45,370 nucleotides of DNA from an uncultured bacterium (lineage in GTDB: Bacteria > Patescibacteriota > Minisyncoccia > Phycocordibacterales > JAACPR01): contig CALLZK010000021.1 in assembly GCA_937858275.1 (NCBI GenBank), positions 1-45,370 of the forward strand. The letters run 5' to 3'. Shown here piece after piece: positions 1-17,002 of the stretch. Every line of letters begins with the position of its first letter. The stretch's first letter is position 1. A program made the position numbers and the translations under genes. Below the pieces are notes generated by a model. The model worked only from the letters and a program-made list of their open reading frames with translations. It searched no databases and was not told the DNA's origin.

Positions 1-2424
1 ATCTTCGTTTGTGATTGAGATTGTTGGGGCTGGTAAGGCAGTTCCACTACCATCATCAGCTCCAGAACCCCCATCAGTTCCAGAACCGCCATCAGTTCCA
101 GAACCGCCGCCGTCACCAGTTCCAGAACCGCCTCCACCGTCAGTTGGAGTTGTCTTATTTCTTGTACAATTAGTTGATGTGCCCCCGTTTAACCCATTAC
201 ATGTCCATGTCCAAGAATTTGCATTTGTATTTATGGAAGATGCCTGTCCAGATGAACACAAAGGTGCTACTGGTGCAGTTGTTCCGTCTGTTGTAGCTGT
301 AGGATGGCATTGACCATTTGTCGGTGATGTATTTGCCAAAACAGTTATATCCCAAGTCATAATTCCACCATTAAAATTTCTATTTATTCTACCAGGAACA
401 CCTTCAAAACCCATAAATGCATTTACAGGCTTACCGCTTGCAACACCACATCCTGGATTATTGTTACCAGTATTGTTACTTGTAACCGCAGTTCTAACAT
501 TGGTATATATACAACCAAACAATGTGGCTGATCCAGAATTTACATTTGCTGTAATTTTTGTGGTTCCAGCAGACTGAGCAGTACATTCCCATTTAACATT
601 ACTAATTTTTGTACAAGAAAGATTTGAATTATTTAATGCTAAATCAGCACTTAAACGTGGTCCATTTATTCTCATGACAGCAGTTCTATTTCCGTCTCTA
701 ACAGATAAATTGGTACCACAATTTGGAGTATCCCAAGCTCCACCAGATGCATTATATGTGCAAGATGATGCCAATTCAACATATACCTTTTGTCCTATTT
801 GCAATGTTGTTCCATTATTACCCAGCAATCGACCGGTAATATTTCTAGTAGCTGTTCCGTTTTTAAATGCAGTTCTTGTATCTCCAGCAGATGTATATCC
901 AACACTAAAATTAAAAGAGTGTGATAATGCCCTGTTTGTTCCTGATATGACAGGTTGTGCAAATCCAATTTTTGGTCCATTAAAAATGGTATAAATTCCC
1001 AAAAACAAAAATACGATAAGCAAAACAGAGAGCAATGCAATTGTTATTGATCTTAATTTACCACTCTTAATTTTTGAATAAACCAATACCAATAAAGCTA
1101 ATGTTATTATTGCCAAAAATAAGTAAACCAGATAAAACATTGAGAAAATTTCACAAGATAAAGGATCAATTACTTTGCAATCATACTCAGCTGTGTAAGT
1201 GTCTAAAATGTTTCCTTCAGAGTCGGTAATTTCTGAAACCAATTTAACATAATTTAATTTTTCTAATGCCGCAACATTAATTGCTGCTGCCTCAACCTCA
1301 CTTGAAATTGGAGTTTTATAATTTCCAGAACTAATTAAATTTCCTTTTTTATCAAAGAGTTTTAAAGAAATATTTTTTAATTCATCTGAACCAATAGAGG
1401 TATTGTGATAACAAATAAATGCTCTAAATTCTTCACCTTTTTTAATTGGAAAAGATGTTATTGCCTGATAATTTATCCTATCTTTTCCAACACCATTTGA
1501 AACCATAAGTGTGTCTCCCCACTCTCCGTCTTGAGATATAAAATCGTATCCAGTGGTCAAAAATCTAATATTTACCAGTGACTGGTATTCTTCGCCAGAA
1601 ATAGAAATTTTCAAATAATATACTGATCTGTCTATATTTTCTACATTATATGTCAAATTGAAGGTGGAATTTGGTAAAATTTTAACTTTTTCAATATTTG
1701 TCTTTATTAAATCTTCTTCTCTTAAACTATCCCAATAGTACAAATCGTATTTTATATTTAGTTCGATTTCTTTATCAAGCAAATTTTTTACTGGTTGGGA
1801 AATGGAAACATTTGAATTTTTTTCAAATTCTGGCCAATTACCAATATGAACATATGTTTGACCATTTATACTGGTCATAGTTCTATCTATAACGAAAGGA
1901 GTTTTTGTATTTGACATTATTTCAAATGTAGAAAAACCGGCTATTATTTCATTTGTAAATGGCAAACCACCCAAATTAAACCTCTTATCTACTGAAAAAA
2001 AATAATCTATTCTGTAGTTACCAGCATCTGAATTTTTTGGCATTTGCCAATTAAAATATATTGGCAAGGAACTTTTCGCTGGTATAGAAACTTTTTCATA
2101 TAGAATTTTTTCTTCGATTATATGATGGCCTTCTGTTTCCCAATTATTATCATTTACCCTACTCAATCTGGCAAATAAATATCCATCGACAATTGGATAG
2201 TCATTAGAATTAGATACTTTTCCAACAAAGTTTATTTTATCACCGGAATTATTTGATACATGTATAGTATCCTGTTCTAATCCTGCGGTCACACTAATAC
2301 TTTGAAATTTATAAAGTCCAGGATCAAAACATTCGACTGGCTGTAAATTATTATCTTGTGCAAAAGTAAAAACTGGTATTACAAATAATAATAAAAAAGC
2401 ACTTAACAATTTTCTAATTTTCAT
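1..2424 (-). CDS. Large (>=808 aa, runs off the left edge) surface protein: signal peptide, beta-rich extracellular region, central two-TM hairpin, second Cys-rich extracellular region, Gly/Ser/Asp linker
   Basis: Missing from the ORF track because there is no stop in the window. I read the minus frame codon by codon from ATG 2424 (MKIRKLLSAFLLLFVIPVFTFAQ) to base 1 and found no stop. Hydrophobic segments MFYLVYLFLAIITLALLVLVYS and ITIALLSVLLIVFLFLGIYTIF lie at about 985-1140. One NGQC..LCSSG..WTWTCNGLNGG..C repeat lies at 166-318. Confidence 0.85.
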   Translation of the reverse strand, partial: MKIRKLLSAFLLLFVIPVFTFAQDNNLQPVECFDPGLYKFQSISVTAGLEQDTIHVSNNSGDKINFVGKVSNSNDYPIVDGYLFARLSRVNDNNWETEGHHIIEEKILYEKVSIPAKSSLPIYFNWQMPKNSDAGNYRIDYFFSVDKRFNLGGLPFTNEIIAGFSTFEIMSNTKTPFVIDRTMTSINGQTYVHIGNWPEFEKNSNVSISQPVKNLLDKEIELNIKYDLYYWDSLREEDLIKTNIEKVKILPNSTFNLTYNVENIDRSVYYLKISISGEEYQSLVNIRFLTTGYDFISQDGEWGDTLMVSNGVGKDRINYQAITSFPIKKGEEFRAFICYHNTSIGSDELKNISLKLFDKKGNLISSGNYKTPISSEVEAAAINVAALEKLNYVKLVSEITDSEGNILDTYTAEYDCKVIDPLSCEIFSMFYLVYLFLAIITLALLVLVYSKIKSGKLRSITIALLSVLLIVFLFLGIYTIFNGPKIGFAQPVISGTNRALSHSFNFSVGYTSAGDTRTAFKNGTATRNITGRLLGNNGTTLQIGQKVYVELASSCTYNASGGAWDTPNCGTNLSVRDGNRTAVMRINGPRLSADLALNNSNLSCTKISNVKWECTAQSAGTTKITANVNSGSATLFGCIYTNVRTAVTSNNTGNNNPGCGVASGKPVNAFMGFEGVPGRINRNFNGGIMTWDITVLANTSPTNGQCHPTATTDGTTAPVAPLCSSGQASSINTNANSWTWTCNGLNGGTSTNCTRNKTTPTDGGGGSGTGDGGGSGTDGGSGTDGGSGADDGSGTALPAPTISITNED
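58..141 (-). repeat. Imperfect 18-24 bp coding tandem repeat (DGGSGT linker)
   Basis: AG(T/C)TCCAGAACC recurs at 58, 76, 94 and 118 and encodes DGGGGSGTGDGGGSGTDGGSGTDGGSGA. Confidence 0.85.
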
Positions 2425-2454
2425 AAATATATTTTAAATTTAATAATATTATTT
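2410..2454 (-). repeat. 45-bp direct repeat, copy 1 (5' leader plus first codons MKIRK)
   Basis: Identical to 3100-3144 (TTTTCTAATTTTCATAAATATATTTTAAATTTAATAATATTATTT on +). Confidence 0.9.
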
Positions 2455-2456
2455 AT

Positions 2457-2510
2457 ATTATACAACAAGAAATCACCGTATCGGTGATTTCTTGTAAATT
2501 ATGTGGATAA
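2457..2510 (-). terminator. 54-bp cassette, copy 1: DnaA-box-like 9-mer, 14-bp hairpin (intrinsic terminator) and TATAAT
   Basis: Stem ACAAGAAATCACCG (2465-2478) / CGGTGATTTCTTGT (2482-2495). TGTGGATAA at 2502-2510. On the minus strand the hairpin is followed by TGTATAAT. Confidence 0.8.
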
Positions 2511-2535
2511 TTATAATATATTTTTACCAATAAAA

Positions 2536-3114
2536 TTATTCCCCCCTGATACAAACAAGCTGACGACTCAGTACTACATTAGAATCAAAATCATCTTTAG
2601 TTGAACATTGTATTCTATAAATACCGGGCTCTACCCAAAATCCAGATTCATCATTATCAAATACTAATGGATCATTAGATGGGGTAAATTCAATTTTTGA
2701 AAACAAAACCATGTTTTGATTTACAGAAAATATATTACAGAAGCCCTCATGAGAAGATGTAACCTTAAATCTAATTGCACATTCTAATTTGGAATAATTT
2801 GCAGAATCTACATCATTATTTAAATTTAAATTATTATCAATTTCTTCATCTGTGATTTTAATTAATATTAATGATTGTGGGGAAATTTCACTTTCTACTT
2901 CATCTGATAATATGTCTATGTAATTTTCATCAAATTCATCAGCATTATTCTGAAATGTTTGATCTGGTGCACAGTCATTTGATGTGTCACCCTTTAAATA
3001 ATCACATTTGGGCATTGTATAATTCCTATCAAAACCGAATATCAAGAAAATAATTAGTCCAAGTAGTACCAAAAAAGAAATTGCGAGAATGGTAGTTATT
3101 TTTCTAATTTTCAT
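2536..3114 (-). CDS. Membrane-anchored protein with a C-terminal 4-Cys domain shared with the neighbouring 656-aa ORF
   Basis: 192-aa ORF with an N-terminal TM (ILAISFLVLLGLIIFLIFGF) and C-terminal CAIRFKVTSSH..C..VEPGIYRIQC..SRQLVCI. Confidence 0.8.
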   Translation of the reverse strand: MKIRKITTILAISFLVLLGLIIFLIFGFDRNYTMPKCDYLKGDTSNDCAPDQTFQNNADEFDENYIDILSDEVESEISPQSLILIKITDEEIDNNLNLNNDVDSANYSKLECAIRFKVTSSHEGFCNIFSVNQNMVLFSKIEFTPSNDPLVFDNDESGFWVEPGIYRIQCSTKDDFDSNVVLSRQLVCIRGE

Positions 3115-3144
3115 AAATATATTTTAAATTTAATAATATTATTT
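3100..3144 (-). repeat. 45-bp direct repeat, copy 2
   Basis: Identical to 2410-2454. Confidence 0.9.
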
Positions 3145-3180
3145 TATAATAAAACACAAAATTTGACTAAATTTTATTGA

Positions 3181-5115
3181 TTACATTTCAACAGGCCCTG
3201 AAGCACCAATACACCTAAGTTGTTTACTATTTGTTTCCTTTTTTGACTCGCCATCAATAGAAATTTCACACTTTACATAATATATACCAGGTAACACAAG
3301 TCTTTCCAGTGATTTTGTGTATTCTGTTGATGGCTCAAAATCCTGAGGTTTAGACATTTGAATTGGTGAATTTGCATTATATATAGCACAAGTACTGGGG
3401 TGGGAAGATTTTACTTCAAATCTGATTATACATTGAGGTGTTGCATATGCAAATGTATTATATGTATCTGTTAAATTTCCCTCACTATCTATATCTTCCT
3501 TAGATATAGATATGTCAAAATCTTGTTTATTTTTTATACATATAACTGTTCCTCCACCTGCAACACCCTCACAATTCCATTTTCTAAAATCAGTTTCTTC
3601 AATCACCTCACTAGGAGATCCCTGCAAACATATTGATTCTGATGGATTAAAATCTCCAGTAACAGTTGCCGTCGGATTACACTGTCCATCTTTTATTTTT
3701 GGTTTTTCACAACTGCTTGATGAACCGTTATTTGCACCAAGACAGTTCCATGTCCAATAATCTGGTGAGTCTTCTTTTAGATTATGATTTAGATTATGAT
3801 ATGTACCAGATGAACATGCGGAATTTGGATTTGGTGGAACTCTTCCTGGCAGTAAATCCCCCGGATTACATTGTCCATCAATCATTTTTGGTCTAGTGCA
3901 ACTTGCTGGTGGCACATTATCTAAAACATTTCTTTCACTAGAACATGTCCAATTCCATGGTCCAGAACCTGTGACAGTTGTAGGTGTTCCAATTGAACAG
4001 AGATCGGCTGGTTCGGTTGGTGGTGGATCCATACTTGGTATTATTGCTGTTGAACTACAACGACCAAGCGGTGCAAGTTCTTTCACACAACTAGCTGTTG
4101 CACCATCATTTATACCAACACATGTCCAATTCCATGGACCAGAACCTGTGACAGATGTGGGTGTTCCAATTGAACAGAGATCGGCTGGTTCGGTTGGTGG
4201 TGGATCCATACTTGGTATTATTGCTGTGGAACTACAACGACCATCCACACATGATCGACTAGTCGGAACATCAGAACATGTTGCCGGATTTGTAGTAGTT
4301 GAATACGAAACCGTATTTGCAGTTTGAAATCCGTTTGTGCAACTGTTCCATGTTGTTACAGCACTTATATAAGTACAAGAATAATTTTTTGCACAACTAA
4401 CAGATGTGCCACCATTTGAACCATTACATTTCCAATTCCATGGACCAGAACCTGTGACAGATGTGGGTGTTCCAGATGAACATAATGGACTTGTTGGTGA
4501 TGTTGTTCCGGAAATTATTGCTGTGGAACTACATTGGCCATTAACCAAAAGAGGTTTTGTACAACTAACAGGTGTGCCTCCATCTGAGCCATTACATGTC
4601 CAATTCCATGGACCAGAACCTGTGACAGATGTGGGTGTTCCAGATGAACATAATGGACTTGTTGGTGATGTTGTTCCGGAAATTATTGCTGTGGAACTAC
4701 ATTGGCCATTAATTGCACAACTATGAGTATTGCAATCTCTAGTTTCTCTATTACCACAACCATCTGTTCTGCTTTGTGTTCCAGTTCCACATGTTGCAGA
4801 ACAAGTGCTCCATGCAGACCAACTTGGTCGACATGCTCTACATATACGATTTGGTTTATTGCTACTACAATCACTAAAGTCATCGCAAAACCAATATTGC
4901 CCCGGAATACCGCTAACATAATTAGCCGGTTTCCAAGTCCAACCCTTTGTGACAAAACCATTTGCAGCACATTTCCAACTGCAAGCTCTTGTTGTATAAT
5001 CAGAAGAAGATGTACTCCAACACTCTTGTACACCCTGAGCAAAAACATTTGTATTTGTTAAAAAAAACATAAAAAAGAAAATTGCTGAGATTAAAAAAAA
5101 CATTTGTCTTTTCAT
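3181..5115 (-). CDS. Secreted Cys-rich repeat adhesin-like protein with a thrombospondin type-1 (TSP1/TSR) repeat
   Basis: ORF extends to 5151; likely start MKRQMFFLISAIFFFMFFLTNTNVFAQ at 5115 (signal peptide). WSAWSTCSATCGTGTQSR motif at 4717-4833. Six roughly 56-60 aa NGQC/GRC..C..G..WxWxC.G...G...C repeats. Confidence 0.85.
   Translation of the reverse strand: MKRQMFFLISAIFFFMFFLTNTNVFAQGVQECWSTSSSDYTTRACSWKCAANGFVTKGWTWKPANYVSGIPGQYWFCDDFSDCSSNKPNRICRACRPSWSAWSTCSATCGTGTQSRTDGCGNRETRDCNTHSCAINGQCSSTAIISGTTSPTSPLCSSGTPTSVTGSGPWNWTCNGSDGGTPVSCTKPLLVNGQCSSTAIISGTTSPTSPLCSSGTPTSVTGSGPWNWKCNGSNGGTSVSCAKNYSCTYISAVTTWNSCTNGFQTANTVSYSTTTNPATCSDVPTSRSCVDGRCSSTAIIPSMDPPPTEPADLCSIGTPTSVTGSGPWNWTCVGINDGATASCVKELAPLGRCSSTAIIPSMDPPPTEPADLCSIGTPTTVTGSGPWNWTCSSERNVLDNVPPASCTRPKMIDGQCNPGDLLPGRVPPNPNSACSSGTYHNLNHNLKEDSPDYWTWNCLGANNGSSSSCEKPKIKDGQCNPTATVTGDFNPSESICLQGSPSEVIEETDFRKWNCEGVAGGGTVICIKNKQDFDISISKEDIDSEGNLTDTYNTFAYATPQCIIRFEVKSSHPSTCAIYNANSPIQMSKPQDFEPSTEYTKSLERLVLPGIYYVKCEISIDGESKKETNSKQLRCIGASGPVEM
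3943..4242 (-). repeat. Near-identical coding tandem duplication, 177-bp period
   Basis: 3943-4065 versus 4120-4242 differ at only a few bases and encode GRCSSTAIIPSMDPPPTEPADLCSIGTPT(T/S)VTGSGPWNWTC. Confidence 0.9.
4431..4712 (-). repeat. Identical 114-bp coding duplication, 168-bp period
   Basis: 4431-4544 equals 4599-4712, compared base by base. Confidence 0.95.
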
Positions 5116-5167
5116 ATTATAATTGTATTTATTTATCATAAAAAATTTCAATAATTAATTAAAAAAC

Positions 5168-5572
5168 CTAATCGTTTTCAGAAAAATTATTTTTAGAATA
5201 GTTTTTCTTTCCATCAACAATATTGATGCATGATTTTTGCATATTTAAATCTGTGATTTTTCGACACAACTCCAAATCAGAATTTTCAATTCCTTTTTTA
5301 TAATTAATCAAAGATAATGTTACATTTTCACAATATTTTTTTTCATTTTCATCTTTCAGGCAATCACAATTTTGTGTATTACCCATATCCGCAGAATCAA
5401 CTACGGTTAAATAAGGATCGCATATTTCATTTTCAGATAAAATATTTGAGGATGTGTCAATTTTGTTTTTATCATTAATTTGAAGAAATAATCCTATCGC
5501 AACCATAACAATAATTAGTAGAAATAAAATAACTAAAGATTTTAGTTGTTTTTGTTTTAATTTATTAGACAT
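5168..5572 (-). CDS. Small membrane-anchored Cys-rich protein
   Basis: Likely start MSNKLKQ (ATG 5572; the ORF track starts at TTG 5593). One N-terminal TM; paired-Cys motifs CDCLKDENEKKYC and CRKITDLNMQKSC. Confidence 0.75.
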   Translation of the reverse strand: MSNKLKQKQLKSLVILFLLIIVMVAIGLFLQINDKNKIDTSSNILSENEICDPYLTVVDSADMGNTQNCDCLKDENEKKYCENVTLSLINYKKGIENSDLELCRKITDLNMQKSCINIVDGKKNYSKNNFSEND

Positions 5573-5581
5573 ATCAATGTA

Positions 5582-5635
5582 ATTATACAACAAAAAACCA
5601 CCGTGTCGGTGGTTTTTTGTAAATTATGTGGATAA
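5582..5635 (-). terminator. 54-bp cassette, copy 2 (fusA terminator plus DnaA-box-like 9-mer and TATAAT)
   Basis: Stem ACAAAAAACCACCG (5590-5603) / CGGTGGTTTTTTGT (5607-5620). TGTGGATAA at 5627-5635. 49/54 identical to 2457-2510. Confidence 0.85.
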
Positions 5636-5650
5636 ACTTATTTTATTTTT

Positions 5651-7798
5651 TTAAATTTTTCCAGATTTTATATTTTCGGCCACATTAGATGGAACTATTT
5701 CGTAATGATCTGGTTCTATTGTCGCAGAAGCACGACCTTGTGTCATCGAGCGAATAATAGTTGTATACCCGAACAATTCTGAAAGTGGAACTTTTGCATG
5801 AATTGTTGTCATACCATTACCGCGATCTTCCATACCTTCCACCTGACCTCTTTTTGAGCTCAAATTTCCAGTCACATCACCTGTAAATTGTTCTGGTGTT
5901 ATAACTTCAACTTTCATAATAGGTTCTAGCAAAACAGGTTTTGCTTTTTGAGCGGCTTCCTTGAAGGCCATTGAGGATGCTAATTTGAAAGCAATTTCTG
6001 AAGAGTCCACATCGTGATATGAACCATCATATAATTCCACAGAAACATCTGTCATTTTATATCCAGCAACAATTCCTCTATCCATTGCCTCTTTGAAACC
6101 TTTTTCACAAGGTGAAATAAATTCTTGAGGAATAGCACCACCCTTTATTGAATTAACAAATTCAAATCCGGCATCTCGTTTAATATTTTTTGGTAAATCT
6201 TCTAATTTTACATCTTTATCCAAAGGCTTAACTCTGATTTTGACATGACCATATTGACCTTTACCTCCAGATTGTTTTATATATTTGTGTTCAGCTTCAG
6301 CTTGACCAATAATTGTTTCTCTATATGCCACTTGTGGTTTTCCAACATCTGCACCAACATTAAATTCTCTCTTCATACGATCAACAATAATCTCTAAGTG
6401 CAATTCTCCCATACCAGAAATAACAGTTTCCCCAGTTTCTGAATCACTATTTACTCTAAAAGTTGGATCTTCATCAGAAAGTCTTTTTAGTGCCATACCC
6501 ATCCTTTCTTGATCAGCTTTTGTTTTTGGTTCTATTTTCATAGAAATAACCGGTTCTGCAAATTGAATTCTATGTAATTCAATAGGATTTGACTCATCAC
6601 ATAAAGTATCAGAAGTTTTTGTGGATTTCAAACCAACAGCTGCAGCAATTTCTCCCGCATAAACAGTTTGAACTTCTTCTCTTTCATTTGCATGCATTCT
6701 CAAAATTCTTCCCAATCTTTCTTTGTCTCCGGTTGTGGAATTATAAACATAAGAACCAGCAGAAATTGTTCCAGAATAAACTCTAAAATAAGTTAATTGA
6801 CCAACATATGGATCTGTTTGTAATTTGAATGCTAAAGCAGAAAAAGATTCTGTATCAGAAGCAATTCTTTCTATTTCTTCTCCTGTTTTTGGATCAAGAC
6901 CTTTTATTGGAGGTATGTCTGTTGGTGCTGGTAAATAATCAACAACAGCATCAAGAACCAGTTGAACTCCGGTATTTTTAAGAGCTGAACCTGTAAATAC
7001 TGGAACTATTTTATTTGCGATAACACCTTTTCTCAAAACAGATTTTAATTCTTCTACAGTTATTTCTTTTCCTTCCAAAAACTTTTCAGTTAATGAATCG
7101 TCTAATTCTGATATACGACTAACTAGTTCTGCATGATATTTTTCTGCTTCTTCTTTTAGTTCTGCTGGTATTTCTTGTTCTATTACAGTATTTCCCATTT
7201 CCCCTTCAAAAGTGAATGCTTTCATTTTTATCAAATCAACAACCCCTTTTAACTCAGATTCTTTTCCCCAAGGGATTTGTGCTCTAACAGCATTTTTTGT
7301 TAGACGATTCAAAATAGATTGGTAGGATCTTTCAAAACTAGCACCGGTTCTATCTAATTTGTTGATAAAACAAATTCTTGGAACTTGATACTTTTCTGCT
7401 TGTCTCCAAACTGTTTCTGATTGCGGTTCAACACCGGCGACACCATCAAAAACAACTACTCCACCGTCCAAAACTTTTAATGATCTCTCCACTTCAGCTG
7501 TAAAATCAACGTGACCGGGTGTATCAATAATATTAAAACGAACTTTTTTTGAAGTATCATCTTTGTTCATGTATGTTGGATTCCAAAAACAAGTTGTAGC
7601 AGCAGCAGTAATTGTAATACCCCTCTCCCTTTCTTGCTCCATCCAATCCATCACAGCTTGACCTTCGTGAACTTCACCTATTTTGTGAGAAACACCGGTA
7701 TAAAACAAAATTCTTTCTGAAGTTGTTGTTTTTCCTGCATCAATGTGAGCAATAATTCCAAAGTTTCTTACTCTTTCTAATGGATAATCTCGTTGCAT
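5651..7798 (-). CDS. fusA: Elongation factor G
   Basis: [41 protein letters not shown] and GMGELHLEI; 715 aa. Confidence 0.99.
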
Positions 7799-7952
7799 AA
7801 ATAATTTTTTATAATTTTAAATTTATTTGAAAATCCCTAAGCGGAATTTTATTATAATGATTAATAAAAAAATTTGGCCCTACCAAATTTGTGCTTTATA
7901 TATTATATGAAAAGGTGTGAAAAGTAAAGAAAAGTTAATTTGTTTGGTAAAC

Positions 7953-8066
7953 AAAAATTACCTAAATTGCTTTTTGAGGTTCTCCGCAGTCTTTTTTGGT
8001 CAAGTGCAACTTGACGAAAAAAGGAAACGAGGACTGAACCGAATAAAAGTAATTTAGGTAATTTTT
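7953..8066. other. About 115-nt rod-like inverted-repeat structure between rpsG and fusA
   Basis: AAAAATTACCTAAATTGC (7953-7970) pairs with GTAATTTAGGTAATTTTT (8049-8066). Nested GGTT/AACC, CAGTC/GACTG, TTTTTT/AAAAAA and GTCAAG/CTTGAC stems. Confidence 0.7.
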
Positions 8067-8073
8067 ATTCACC

Positions 8074-8544
8074 TTACCAAGCAAAGTGTGCGAATGCTTT
8101 GTTTGCTTCTGCCATTTTGTGAACATTTTCTCTTTTTTTGAATGCCTCACCTTCCCCCTTACTTGTCATCAATATTTCATCTGCTAATTTGATATGCATT
8201 GGTTGGCCTTTTTTATTTCTAGCAGCTTCTAATATCCAAGTCATAGCCAAAAATAGCCTTCTTTCCATTCTAACTTCTACAGGTACTTGATAGTTTGCAC
8301 CACCAACTCTCCTAGATCTAATTTCCAAAACTGGAGCGGCATTTTTTAATGCTTGTTCAAAAATTTCTAATGGATCTTCGACTTTTGCTTTTTCTTTTAT
8401 AAGTTCAAAAGTGTCGTAAACTACTTTTTCAGCAACACTTTTTTTGCCATTTTTCATTAAATGATTAATAAATTTTGAAACTTTTACAGAATTATATTTT
8501 GTATCAGGTTTTATTTCGTGTTTTCTCTTTATTGGTTTTCGCAT
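8074..8544 (-). CDS. rpsG: 30S ribosomal protein S7
   Basis: [12 protein letters not shown] and [15 protein letters not shown]. Confidence 0.99.
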
Positions 8545-16064: not shown

Positions 16065-16217
16065 TACTATTGTGACAAATATATTAAAAATGTCAGAAAA
16101 ACCATAACTATCAACAAAAAAACCTTTATTTATATGTGGATAAGTGTCACAGAGTTGTGACAAGATGTGCTATATTTATTATATTGAATGTGTTTAGACA
16201 AAATTTATTAGACAAAT
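16050..16217. promoter_or_regulatory. Cluster of TGACA/TGTCA operator-like sites between the island promoter and the TrmB gene
   Basis: TTGACA-AAA-TGTCAA (16050-16064), TGTCAC-N6-GTGACA (16145-16162), TTAGACAAA twice, and TGTGGATAA at 16135-16143. Confidence 0.55.
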
Positions 16218-16243: not shown

Positions 16244-17002
16244 ATGCAACAAGAAATATTAAATTCCGCAGGACTTACCACAGAACAATCAAAGATATAC
16301 ACCACCCTATTAGAAAACGGCTCAATGCAAGCCAGAAAAATAGTCCTAAATACAGGTATAAAACGGGGATTGGTCTATAAAGCACTTGATCAATTAATAG
16401 AAATGGGTCTAGTCACCAAACACGATTCTTTAGGAAAAATAAGTGTCTTCAATCCAAATCATCCAAATTTAATTTTAAAAATTATTGAAGAAAAAAAGAA
16501 AAACCTAGAAACAATAGAGGATTCCGTAAAATCAGTTGTTGGCCAAATGACTTCTAGTTTTAATCTTTTGACCGGAAAACCAAATGTTCGATTTTATGAA
16601 GGTGAAAAAGGTTTAAAGGAAGTGCTGGACGATTCTCTGTATTCAAAATCAGAAGTTTTATCATATGCAGACCTGGAATCAATTGAGAAATTTATTCCAG
16701 AAATTAATAAAAAACATGTAGCAGATAGAAAAAAACATGGGGTAATAAAAAAGGCAATGGTTCTAGATTCTGAATTTAATAGAAAAGTAATTCAAAATTA
16801 TGACAAAGAAGTGACTAATGTTCGTTTTATGGATGTATCTGAATCAAAACCATTTCAATCACTTATGAATATTTACGATAACAAAGTTTCGTATTTGACC
16901 TTGGACACCGACAGAATGATTGGTGTAATTATAGAAGATGAACATATTGCCGAAATGCAAAGATATATTTGGGAATTTAGTTGGAAAAATGCAAAAGATT
17001 AA
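16244..17002 (+). CDS. TrmB-family transcriptional regulator (N-terminal wHTH)
   Basis: Start MQQEILNSAGLTTEQSKIYTTLLENG..TGIKRGLVYKALDQLIEMGLV; PNVRFYEGEKG; C-terminal IYDNKVSYL..GVIIEDEHIA. Confidence 0.9.
   Translation: MQQEILNSAGLTTEQSKIYTTLLENGSMQARKIVLNTGIKRGLVYKALDQLIEMGLVTKHDSLGKISVFNPNHPNLILKIIEEKKKNLETIEDSVKSVVGQMTSSFNLLTGKPNVRFYEGEKGLKEVLDDSLYSKSEVLSYADLESIEKFIPEINKKHVADRKKHGVIKKAMVLDSEFNRKVIQNYDKEVTNVRFMDVSESKPFQSLMNIYDNKVSYLTLDTDRMIGVIIEDEHIAEMQRYIWEFSWKNAKD

Follow-up and report, generated by a model that had tools for sequence, protein, structure and literature searches.

Whether a DnaA box at a gene boundary is an incidental match or one of the signals that start the next transcript is the question raised by a 54-bp sequence present twice, at 2457-2510 and 5582-5635, in a 45,370-nt stretch of DNA from an uncultured bacterium of the Patescibacteriota (order Phycocordibacterales; contig CALLZK010000021.1 of assembly GCA_937858275.1), the whole of which is referred to below as the window. 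A sequence-only reading of the window had proposed that each copy is a modular insulator and promoter that restarts transcription for surface-protein genes, possibly tying adhesin expression to DnaA. We favour, with a probability of roughly 60%, the view that the module combines an intrinsic terminator, a -10-only promoter and a DnaA operator at a gene boundary, is ancestral at the fusA junction and was duplicated here. To judge from sequence, this is an ordinary terminator-promoter junction with a probably genuine, lineage-wide DnaA operator. Termination, the transcription start site (TSS), leaderless translation, DnaA binding and the direction of regulation are treated as predictions throughout.

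Two copies of a gene-boundary signal

The two copies are identical at 49 of 54 positions, and the repeat was found with the coordinates, sequence and layout that had been described for it. The mismatches lie at cassette positions 20, 24, 31, 38 and 42; positions 20/42 change a G-C to an A-T pair, 24/38 change a T-A to a C-G pair, and position 31 is the middle base of the loop, with the result that a perfect 14-bp stem is kept in both copies despite the five differences. The two compensatory pairs and single loop change seen by the sequence-only reading are therefore real, and five random substitutions would leave the stem intact, with at least four of them falling in the stem, at a frequency of only 7e-4 (3 million simulations).

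Every gene in the first 9 kb of the window lies on the minus strand, and in that direction each copy consists of the box TTATCCACA, a 6-nt spacer (TAATTT), a hairpin of 14 bp and a 3-nt loop with a T-run as its 3' arm, the dinucleotide TG and the hexamer TATAAT, followed by the next gene, which is the order claimed previously. Both boxes match TTATCCACA (TT[A/T]TNCACA) at 9/9 positions, the gap from box to TATAAT is 39 nt, and the similarity between the copies stops sharply at TATAAT. A canonical extended -10 element (TGnTATAAT) was considered and rejected, as TGTATAAT is without the 1-nt spacer. The shared 19-mer TTATCCACATAATTTACAA occurs twice, compared with 0.1 occurrences expected.

The region was found in only two public runs, both of activated-sludge DNA. 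Independent Logan contigs from these runs cover either copy along with flanking sequence unique to it, and a deletion joint was not seen, so an assembly artefact was rejected. The two copies can be taken as a real, locally duplicated gene-boundary signal, one that would stop the upstream transcript and restart the next. Public contigs from the same sludge also hold a strain variant of the region 4683-6400, which differs by 20 substitutions and by 3 nt inserted after 4859, and none of these changes falls within copy 2.

A box linked to promoters across the order

The perfect box TTATCCACA occurs 23 times in this genome of 600 kb and 30% G+C, and 13 of these lie in the intergenic 9.5%, where 0.87 would be expected from a second-order Markov model, an approximately 15-fold enrichment in which the intergenic counts are approximate since genes were called crudely as the longest open reading frames (ORFs). 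Eleven perfect TATAAT hexamers sit 32-51 nt past boxes, nine of them at 37-46 nt, where fewer than one is expected, and no such peak in distance is seen for the inverted orientation. Across 41 genomes of the same order, TTATCCACA followed by TATAAT after 34-46 nt gave 43 hits against 1 in the backwards control, whereas the inverted box at the same spacing gave 10 hits against 4 in its own control. The gap peaks at 37-43 nt (35/42 hits, with a mode of 41). At the scale of the phylum (300 genomes) the excess is weaker, with around 76 hits against around 20 in the controls, and the strong effect is at the level of the order. These counts indicate that TTATCCACA is a promoter-linked motif, constrained in orientation and distance across the order, rather than an incidental match.

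The box is not tied to terminators in particular. A clear terminator-like hairpin is present in about nine of the 55 box promoters found order-wide, and 8/9 of the terminator-abutting promoters caught by a scan of this genome, which missed the two window copies, are without a box; a specific link between the two was rejected on these counts. The role claimed for the DnaA box thus holds in part, in that the motif is promoter-linked, oriented and distance-constrained across the order and a canonical DnaA is encoded, but the specific tie to terminators does not.

The co-oriented genes that follow boxes in this genome encode ribonucleotide reductase (RNR), two type IV pilin-like proteins, phosphoketolase, SecA, a protein with a transmembrane (TM) helix, a GT39-like membrane protein, a 1027-aa protein and four secreted or surface proteins. 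Two of these last four lie in the window, and another is a paralog encoded on contig C14 that has its own box, an unrelated terminator and TGTATAAT. Some of the same families recur past boxes in relatives, namely RNR (genome G026), phosphoketolase (G015) and the TM-helix protein (G040), the last again with its second, inverted box. Boxes in relatives also precede several small, leaderless membrane proteins and G+C-rich loci free of ORFs. At loci L010 and L011 (G018, G009) and L013 (G014), box promoters lead into G+C-rich, ORF-free sequence conserved between two genomes, and these loci are candidate non-coding RNA (ncRNA) genes under box promoters. The proposed tie to adhesin genes is consequently not specific, as the box set spans RNR, phosphoketolase, SecA, pilins and ncRNA-like loci.

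Conservation of the box is greatest at RNR, where 13 of 28 loci have a perfect TTATCCACA lying 66-79 nt ahead of the ATG. All 11 family-level orthologs are among these 13, although their flanks have diverged, and six more of the 28 have one-mismatch boxes. Here the box stands 21-23 nt before a TAnAAT -10 element, over the -35 region. The RNR box of this genome is at around 9028-9036 of contig C3 (orthologs L048-L058), with the gap lengthened by a T8A9 run. Placement conserved as would be expected of a DnaA operator is therefore seen in the intergenic excess, in the 43 hits against 1 and 10, at 13/28 RNR loci, and downstream of fusA in 3/4 same-genus genomes, as described below. In E. coli, RNR is the textbook example of a gene under DnaA control, and such control has also been suggested in B. 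subtilis and Caulobacter (PMC8203912).

Two further observations concern boxes outside this class. A repeated strong promoter module, TTAT[T/G]CACA-ACAATG-TTGACT-N17-TAT[T/A]AT, occurs at 16695, 18147 and 18828 of contig C1, at 9 of C8 and at 20, 607 and 1191 of C11; it places a position-5 variant of the DnaA box right upstream of a good -35, with a gap to the -10 of about 29 nt, unlike the 37-43 nt class. The third perfect box of the window (16135-16143) adjoins a GTCACA-N4-TGTGAC palindrome.

Terminator and promoter signals

RNA folding of 71-nt pieces gave -23.2 and -20.4 kcal/mol, with z-scores of -6.5 and -4.3 against shuffles, and the hairpin alone comes to about -19 to -20 kcal/mol in both copies. 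The stems are stable and contain GC pairs, are backed by the U-rich tails UUUUUUGUUGU and UUUCUUGUUGU, and begin 31 nt past the fusA stop codon and 41 nt past that of the 192-aa gene, between co-oriented genes, all of which is typical of intrinsic (Rho-independent) terminators. They resemble those that abut the next promoter in compact genomes in the GC-cored stem, the 3-nt loop, the U-rich 3' tail and the placement 15-40 nt past a stop codon. Nothing fundamental differs, and what sets these hairpins apart is only their nested position, with a putative operator on the upstream side and the -10 element on the other, an arrangement that looks like a saving of space. A simple terminator scanner missed both window copies (the T-run belongs to the extended stem), and an Rfam search gave no match at either copy. 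The compensatory pairs, together with complete turnover of the hairpin sequence across the genus while structure and spacing are kept (structure retained in 3/4 same-genus genomes), argue that the hairpin is under selection as a structure, as expected of a terminator, and the earlier claim of such selection is upheld.

The TATAAT is perfect in both copies and is kept at the orthologous site downstream of fusA in the same-genus genomes G001-G004, as would be expected of a sigma-70 -10 element. Among the intergenic 9-mers of the genome, TGnTATAAT words rank with the most enriched, and about 9-11 of its roughly 150 TATAAT promoters have a terminator-like hairpin directly before them, mostly without a box. 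The mean match to the -35 hexamer is 2.90/6 for box promoters and 2.88 for the rest, compared with 2.62 in random sequence; the promoters of this genome can be described as generally -10-only.

In the mechanism proposed here, the intrinsic terminator would first end the upstream transcript, that of fusA at copy 2 and that of the 192-aa gene at copy 1, and a -10-only, sigma-70-type promoter, with its TATAAT 2 nt past the stem, would then restart transcription. The copy 2 message is predicted to be leaderless or nearly so because the ATG is only 9 nt past TATAAT, and the copy 1 message would carry a conserved AT-rich leader, with around 32 nt from TATAAT to ATG. The term insulator/promoter therefore suits the anatomy, an intrinsic terminator before a -10 element between co-oriented genes, but not the idea of a dedicated, reusable cassette.

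The fusA junction and the origin of the duplication

The region behind fusA was compared in 23 relatives, four of which (G001-G004) belong to the same genus. In these four the fusA stop codon is followed after 13-27 nt by a box-like 9-mer (3/4 genomes), a terminator hairpin, TATAAT, an AT-rich leader of about 30 nt and a signal-peptide gene. The 9-mer is TTATTCACA in G003, TTCTCCACA in G004 and CTATCCACA in G002, with gaps to TATAAT of 40, 38 and 40 nt, respectively, and the hairpin sequences are unrelated from genome to genome. The next gene is in all four an ortholog of window 1-2424, with 39-43% identity over 460-480 aa. Because the four genomes share this layout and the surface-protein ortholog, the ancestral order in the genus is taken to be fusA, module and surface-protein gene. 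The 3,125-bp, three-gene segment that the two 54-bp copies border as direct repeats in this genome is absent between fusA and the surface-protein ortholog in all four; the 3,125-bp unit is made up of one copy of the module and the 134-, 656- and 192-aa genes.

A BLAST search with 121 nt against this genome and 40 relatives returned only the two window copies. A mobile or multicopy cassette was rejected on that basis, and the genome-wide search that the sequence-only reading had called for leaves its modular cassette as two copies arising from one local duplication. The two copies also do not qualify as a repeat of the miniature inverted-repeat transposable element or repetitive extragenic palindromic (MITE/REP) type, which is multicopy with terminal inverted repeats or target duplications, and their boundaries coincide with functional signals. 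In G006 the fusA terminator precedes the box-like 9-mer and is not nested, and because of this different order, and because most terminator-abutting promoters are without a box, terminator, box and promoter are best seen as separable signals and the cassette as put together from common parts, not as a dedicated device.

It is proposed that the module was duplicated in this genome, its copies coming to border a 3.1-kb insertion of three mosaic surface-protein paralogs, and that compensatory substitutions would then have preserved the hairpin. Tandem duplication of the module plus a gene, followed by shuffling, would fit as a mechanism, as would, by analogy, recombination at the module of the kind seen in the PeSL (promoter-early stem-loop) cassettes of T4-like phages, composite terminator/promoter elements that plausibly served as recombination points for the insertion of gene segments (PMC2839356, PMC4122927). 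As with PeSL, a variable gene segment has at its borders repeats of a short composite (about 50-70 bp) of terminator stem-loop and promoter, and the module is plausibly the recombination point for insertion of that segment. PeSL, however, form a dispersed, genome-wide family, compared with the two copies here and none in 40 relatives; the present module lies in a cellular rather than a phage genome and contains a DnaA box; and the inserted genes and the surface-protein gene next to them are paralogs, which makes tandem duplication and shuffling as likely as cassette-mediated capture. The locus also documents the way in which new surface-protein genes, once inserted, are wired through the copying of regulatory modules.

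DnaA as the probable reader of the box

The genome encodes one full-length DnaA (447 aa, contig C22), whose best structural relative is B. subtilis DnaA (8BTG, E 7e-116), and the domain IV motifs PRQ and GGRDHTTVIH are conserved, leaving the recognition motif intact. The base-contacting residues of this domain are taken from the 1J1V structure. Four DnaA boxes, all with one mismatch, lie in the dnaA-dnaN spacer (23748-23911 of contig C22), which is likely to be oriC, the perfect boxes being found at promoters elsewhere; the region upstream of dnaA also carries related boxes.

As a third step in the proposed mechanism, TTATCCACA would be an operator at about -60 to -52, taking the TSS to be around 7 nt past the -10, at which DnaA, the most likely ligand, would modulate initiation. 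It would probably stimulate initiation, since the site is upstream of the position of RNA polymerase. DnaA oligomers that spread downstream might instead repress, and such repression is plausible at RNR, where the box overlaps the -35 region.

DnaA might also occupy these sites without controlling promoters, the box being a titration site (like datA or the DnaA-box clusters of B. subtilis) or a roadblock that reinforces upstream termination, an explanation we regard as unlikely. Pure titration would not be expected to produce an orientation bias of 43 to 10 or a distance constraint of 37-43 nt, although it would agree with perfect boxes that are single and scattered in intergenic DNA while the likely oriC has one-mismatch boxes only. 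The roadblock gains from the position of both window boxes in the 3' region of the upstream gene, just ahead of the terminator, and Schaefer and Messer reportedly found in 1988 that DnaA/box complexes block RNA polymerase in an orientation-dependent manner in E. coli. Many box promoters, however, have no close co-oriented upstream gene or lie behind divergent genes, and in G006 the box-like 9-mer sits past the fusA terminator. Conservation at the RNR and phosphoketolase promoters points instead to gene-specific control.

It is similarly improbable that TTATCCACA is read by another transcription factor, or by RNA polymerase as a lineage-specific upstream element, with the match to a DnaA box being coincidental. 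The motif agrees with the highest-affinity DnaA box at 9/9 positions, the DNA-binding motif of DnaA is conserved, RNR, a hallmark DnaA target, has the most conserved box, and related boxes are found both upstream of dnaA and in the dnaA-dnaN spacer. Set against this, the motif is far stricter than classical DnaA-box degeneracy would suggest (position 5: C 43, other bases 12), an upstream element could serve basal recognition in a genome where promoters are generally -10-only, and the sites are single, as opposed to the clusters or pairs typical of DnaA regulons (PMC11317965). On the side of DnaA, one-mismatch variants in the intergenic DNA of this genome concentrate at positions 5, 3 and 6 and so loosely resemble TT(A/T)TNCACA, although the count is confounded by the repeated promoter module. 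Lastly, that the box in these two copies is a functionless passenger of the duplicated fusA terminator/promoter region, as a single event with only two copies and the box-free orthologous site of G001 might suggest, is very doubtful, since all five substitutions fall in the hairpin and none in the box, 6-nt spacer or -10 (although the chance of such a pattern is no lower than ~0.05), and since in 3/4 same-genus genomes a box of one mismatch or none stands in the same place, with a 38-40 nt gap, while the hairpin turned over completely, against a background density of such boxes of ~0.012 per 30-nt window.

Several observations count against the preferred reading of a DnaA operator within a terminator-promoter junction. 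Position 5 of the motif in relatives is C in 43 cases, A in seven, T in five and G in none (control total 8; A plus T 12 against about 7 in the control), which is less degenerate than expected of DnaA boxes. The two spacings, 21-23 nt at RNR and 37-43 nt elsewhere, argue against a single geometry of contact with RNA polymerase, and the weak -35 at box promoters was rejected as a sign of activator dependence, given a match of 2.90 compared with 2.88 elsewhere. Behind fusA, G001 has the hairpin and TATAAT without a box, and two same-genus genomes have unusual box variants with C at position 1 or 3. The three modules of box, terminator and promoter in this genome are linked by descent and are not independent evidence for a designed combination; only the cross-genome data are independent.

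DnaA-regulated promoters are known from E. coli (nrdAB and dnaA) and from the B. subtilis and Caulobacter regulons (review PMC8203912). As there, a consensus box lies just upstream of or over the promoter, RNR is a target and boxes are found upstream of dnaA; in these systems DnaA either activates or represses (PMC8203912). The promoters predicted here differ in usually having one perfect box of fixed orientation, preferentially 37-43 nt from the -10 of the -10-only promoter that follows it, and, in the two window copies, in having the space between operator and -10 filled by the terminator of the upstream gene. The targets differ as well, including pilins, surface proteins, SecA, phosphoketolase and ncRNA-like loci, and the hosts are uncultured Patescibacteria. 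A search of a literature library found no paper that links the DnaA box or TTATCCACA with promoters of Patescibacteria or the candidate phyla radiation (CPR).

The promoter-linked box suggests that DnaA may also be a gene regulator in this ultra-small group. More tentatively, and as an idea that we judge somewhat less likely than not, DnaA in Paceibacteria-type CPR could double as a global transcription factor, acting on a conserved regulon through a single perfect, oriented box about 40 nt before the -10, or over the -35 at RNR. Such a regulon would couple deoxynucleotide triphosphate (dNTP) supply, central carbon flux (phosphoketolase), secretion, pili, fast-evolving surface proteins and several ncRNAs to the state of replication initiation, in organisms with very few regulators and mostly -10-only promoters. 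On this view the module behind fusA would be an operator of the regulon that has a terminator nested within it. The 54-bp repeat is itself ordinary, and it is the box that leads to a regularity, reproducible and open to testing, in ultra-small bacteria that are uncultured. Should DnaA prove to be the reader, the pattern would offer a first way into the question of how cells with almost no classical regulators coordinate surface, pilus and metabolic genes with replication, and would provide a sequence rule for predicting the regulon in metagenome-assembled genomes.

Neighbouring genes and other features

The features of the window discussed here are collected in Table 1. The 134-, 656- and 192-aa proteins have Cys-repeat and C-terminal modules in common, both among themselves and with the 808-aa protein. 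Because these protein modules are common to neighbours and the 45-bp leader/start unit is itself duplicated, the locus reads as a mosaic of duplicated coding and regulatory pieces, and the region upstream of the 808-aa gene as a mosaic of two separately duplicated modules.

Table 1. Positions of the two module copies, the third box and neighbouring features in the window.
Feature	Position	Strand	Remark
808-aa signal-peptide surface protein	1..2424	-	Truncated by the window; downstream of copy 1
45-bp leader plus start	2410..2454	-	AT-rich 5' untranslated region, ATG, MKIRK; directly abuts copy 1
Copy 1, -10 hexamer TATAAT	2457..2462	-	Predicted promoter of the 808-aa surface-protein gene
Copy 1, terminator hairpin ACAAGAAATCACCG-ATA-CGGTGATTTCTTGT	2465..2495	-	14 bp; compensatory changes at two pairs compared with copy 2
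Copy 1, perfect DnaA-box consensus TTATCCACA	2502..2510	-	26 nt past the stop of the 192-aa gene
Lineage-specific segment between copies	2511..5581	-	Repeat period 3,125 bp; three genes
192-aa protein	2536-3114	-	Inside the lineage-specific segment
Second 45-bp leader/start unit	3100..3144	-	Before the 192-aa gene; 100% identical to 2410-2454
656-aa Cys-repeat/TSP1-like protein	3181-5151	-	Inside the lineage-specific segment
134-aa membrane protein	5168-5572	-	Inside the lineage-specific segment
Copy 2, -10 hexamer TATAAT within TGTATAAT	5582..5587	-	ATG of the 134-aa gene 9 nt further on
Copy 2, intrinsic-terminator hairpin ACAAAAAACCACCG-ACA-CGGTGGTTTTTTGT	5590..5620	-	14 bp, A-tract/U-tract arms; predicted fusA terminator
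Copy 2, perfect DnaA-box consensus TTATCCACA	5627..5635	-	Begins 16 nt past the fusA stop codon
fusA (elongation factor G, EF-G)	5651..7798	-	Conserved upstream neighbour of the module
Third perfect box TTATCCACA	16135..16143	-	Upstream of a structured-leader exonuclease operon; outside the repeat

The interval between rpsG and fusA contains a rod-like hairpin of about 130 nt (7930-8080, minus strand; -52.7 kcal/mol, z -8.4), for which there is no Rfam match. Its inner portion of around 60 nt (CTCGTYTCCTTTTTTCGTCAAGTTGCACTTGACTAAAAAAGACTGCGGAGGA) recurs about 11 times in the genome, and two of these copies lie within 100-150 bp of perfect DnaA boxes (contig C1 at ~13853 and contig C19 at ~26268).

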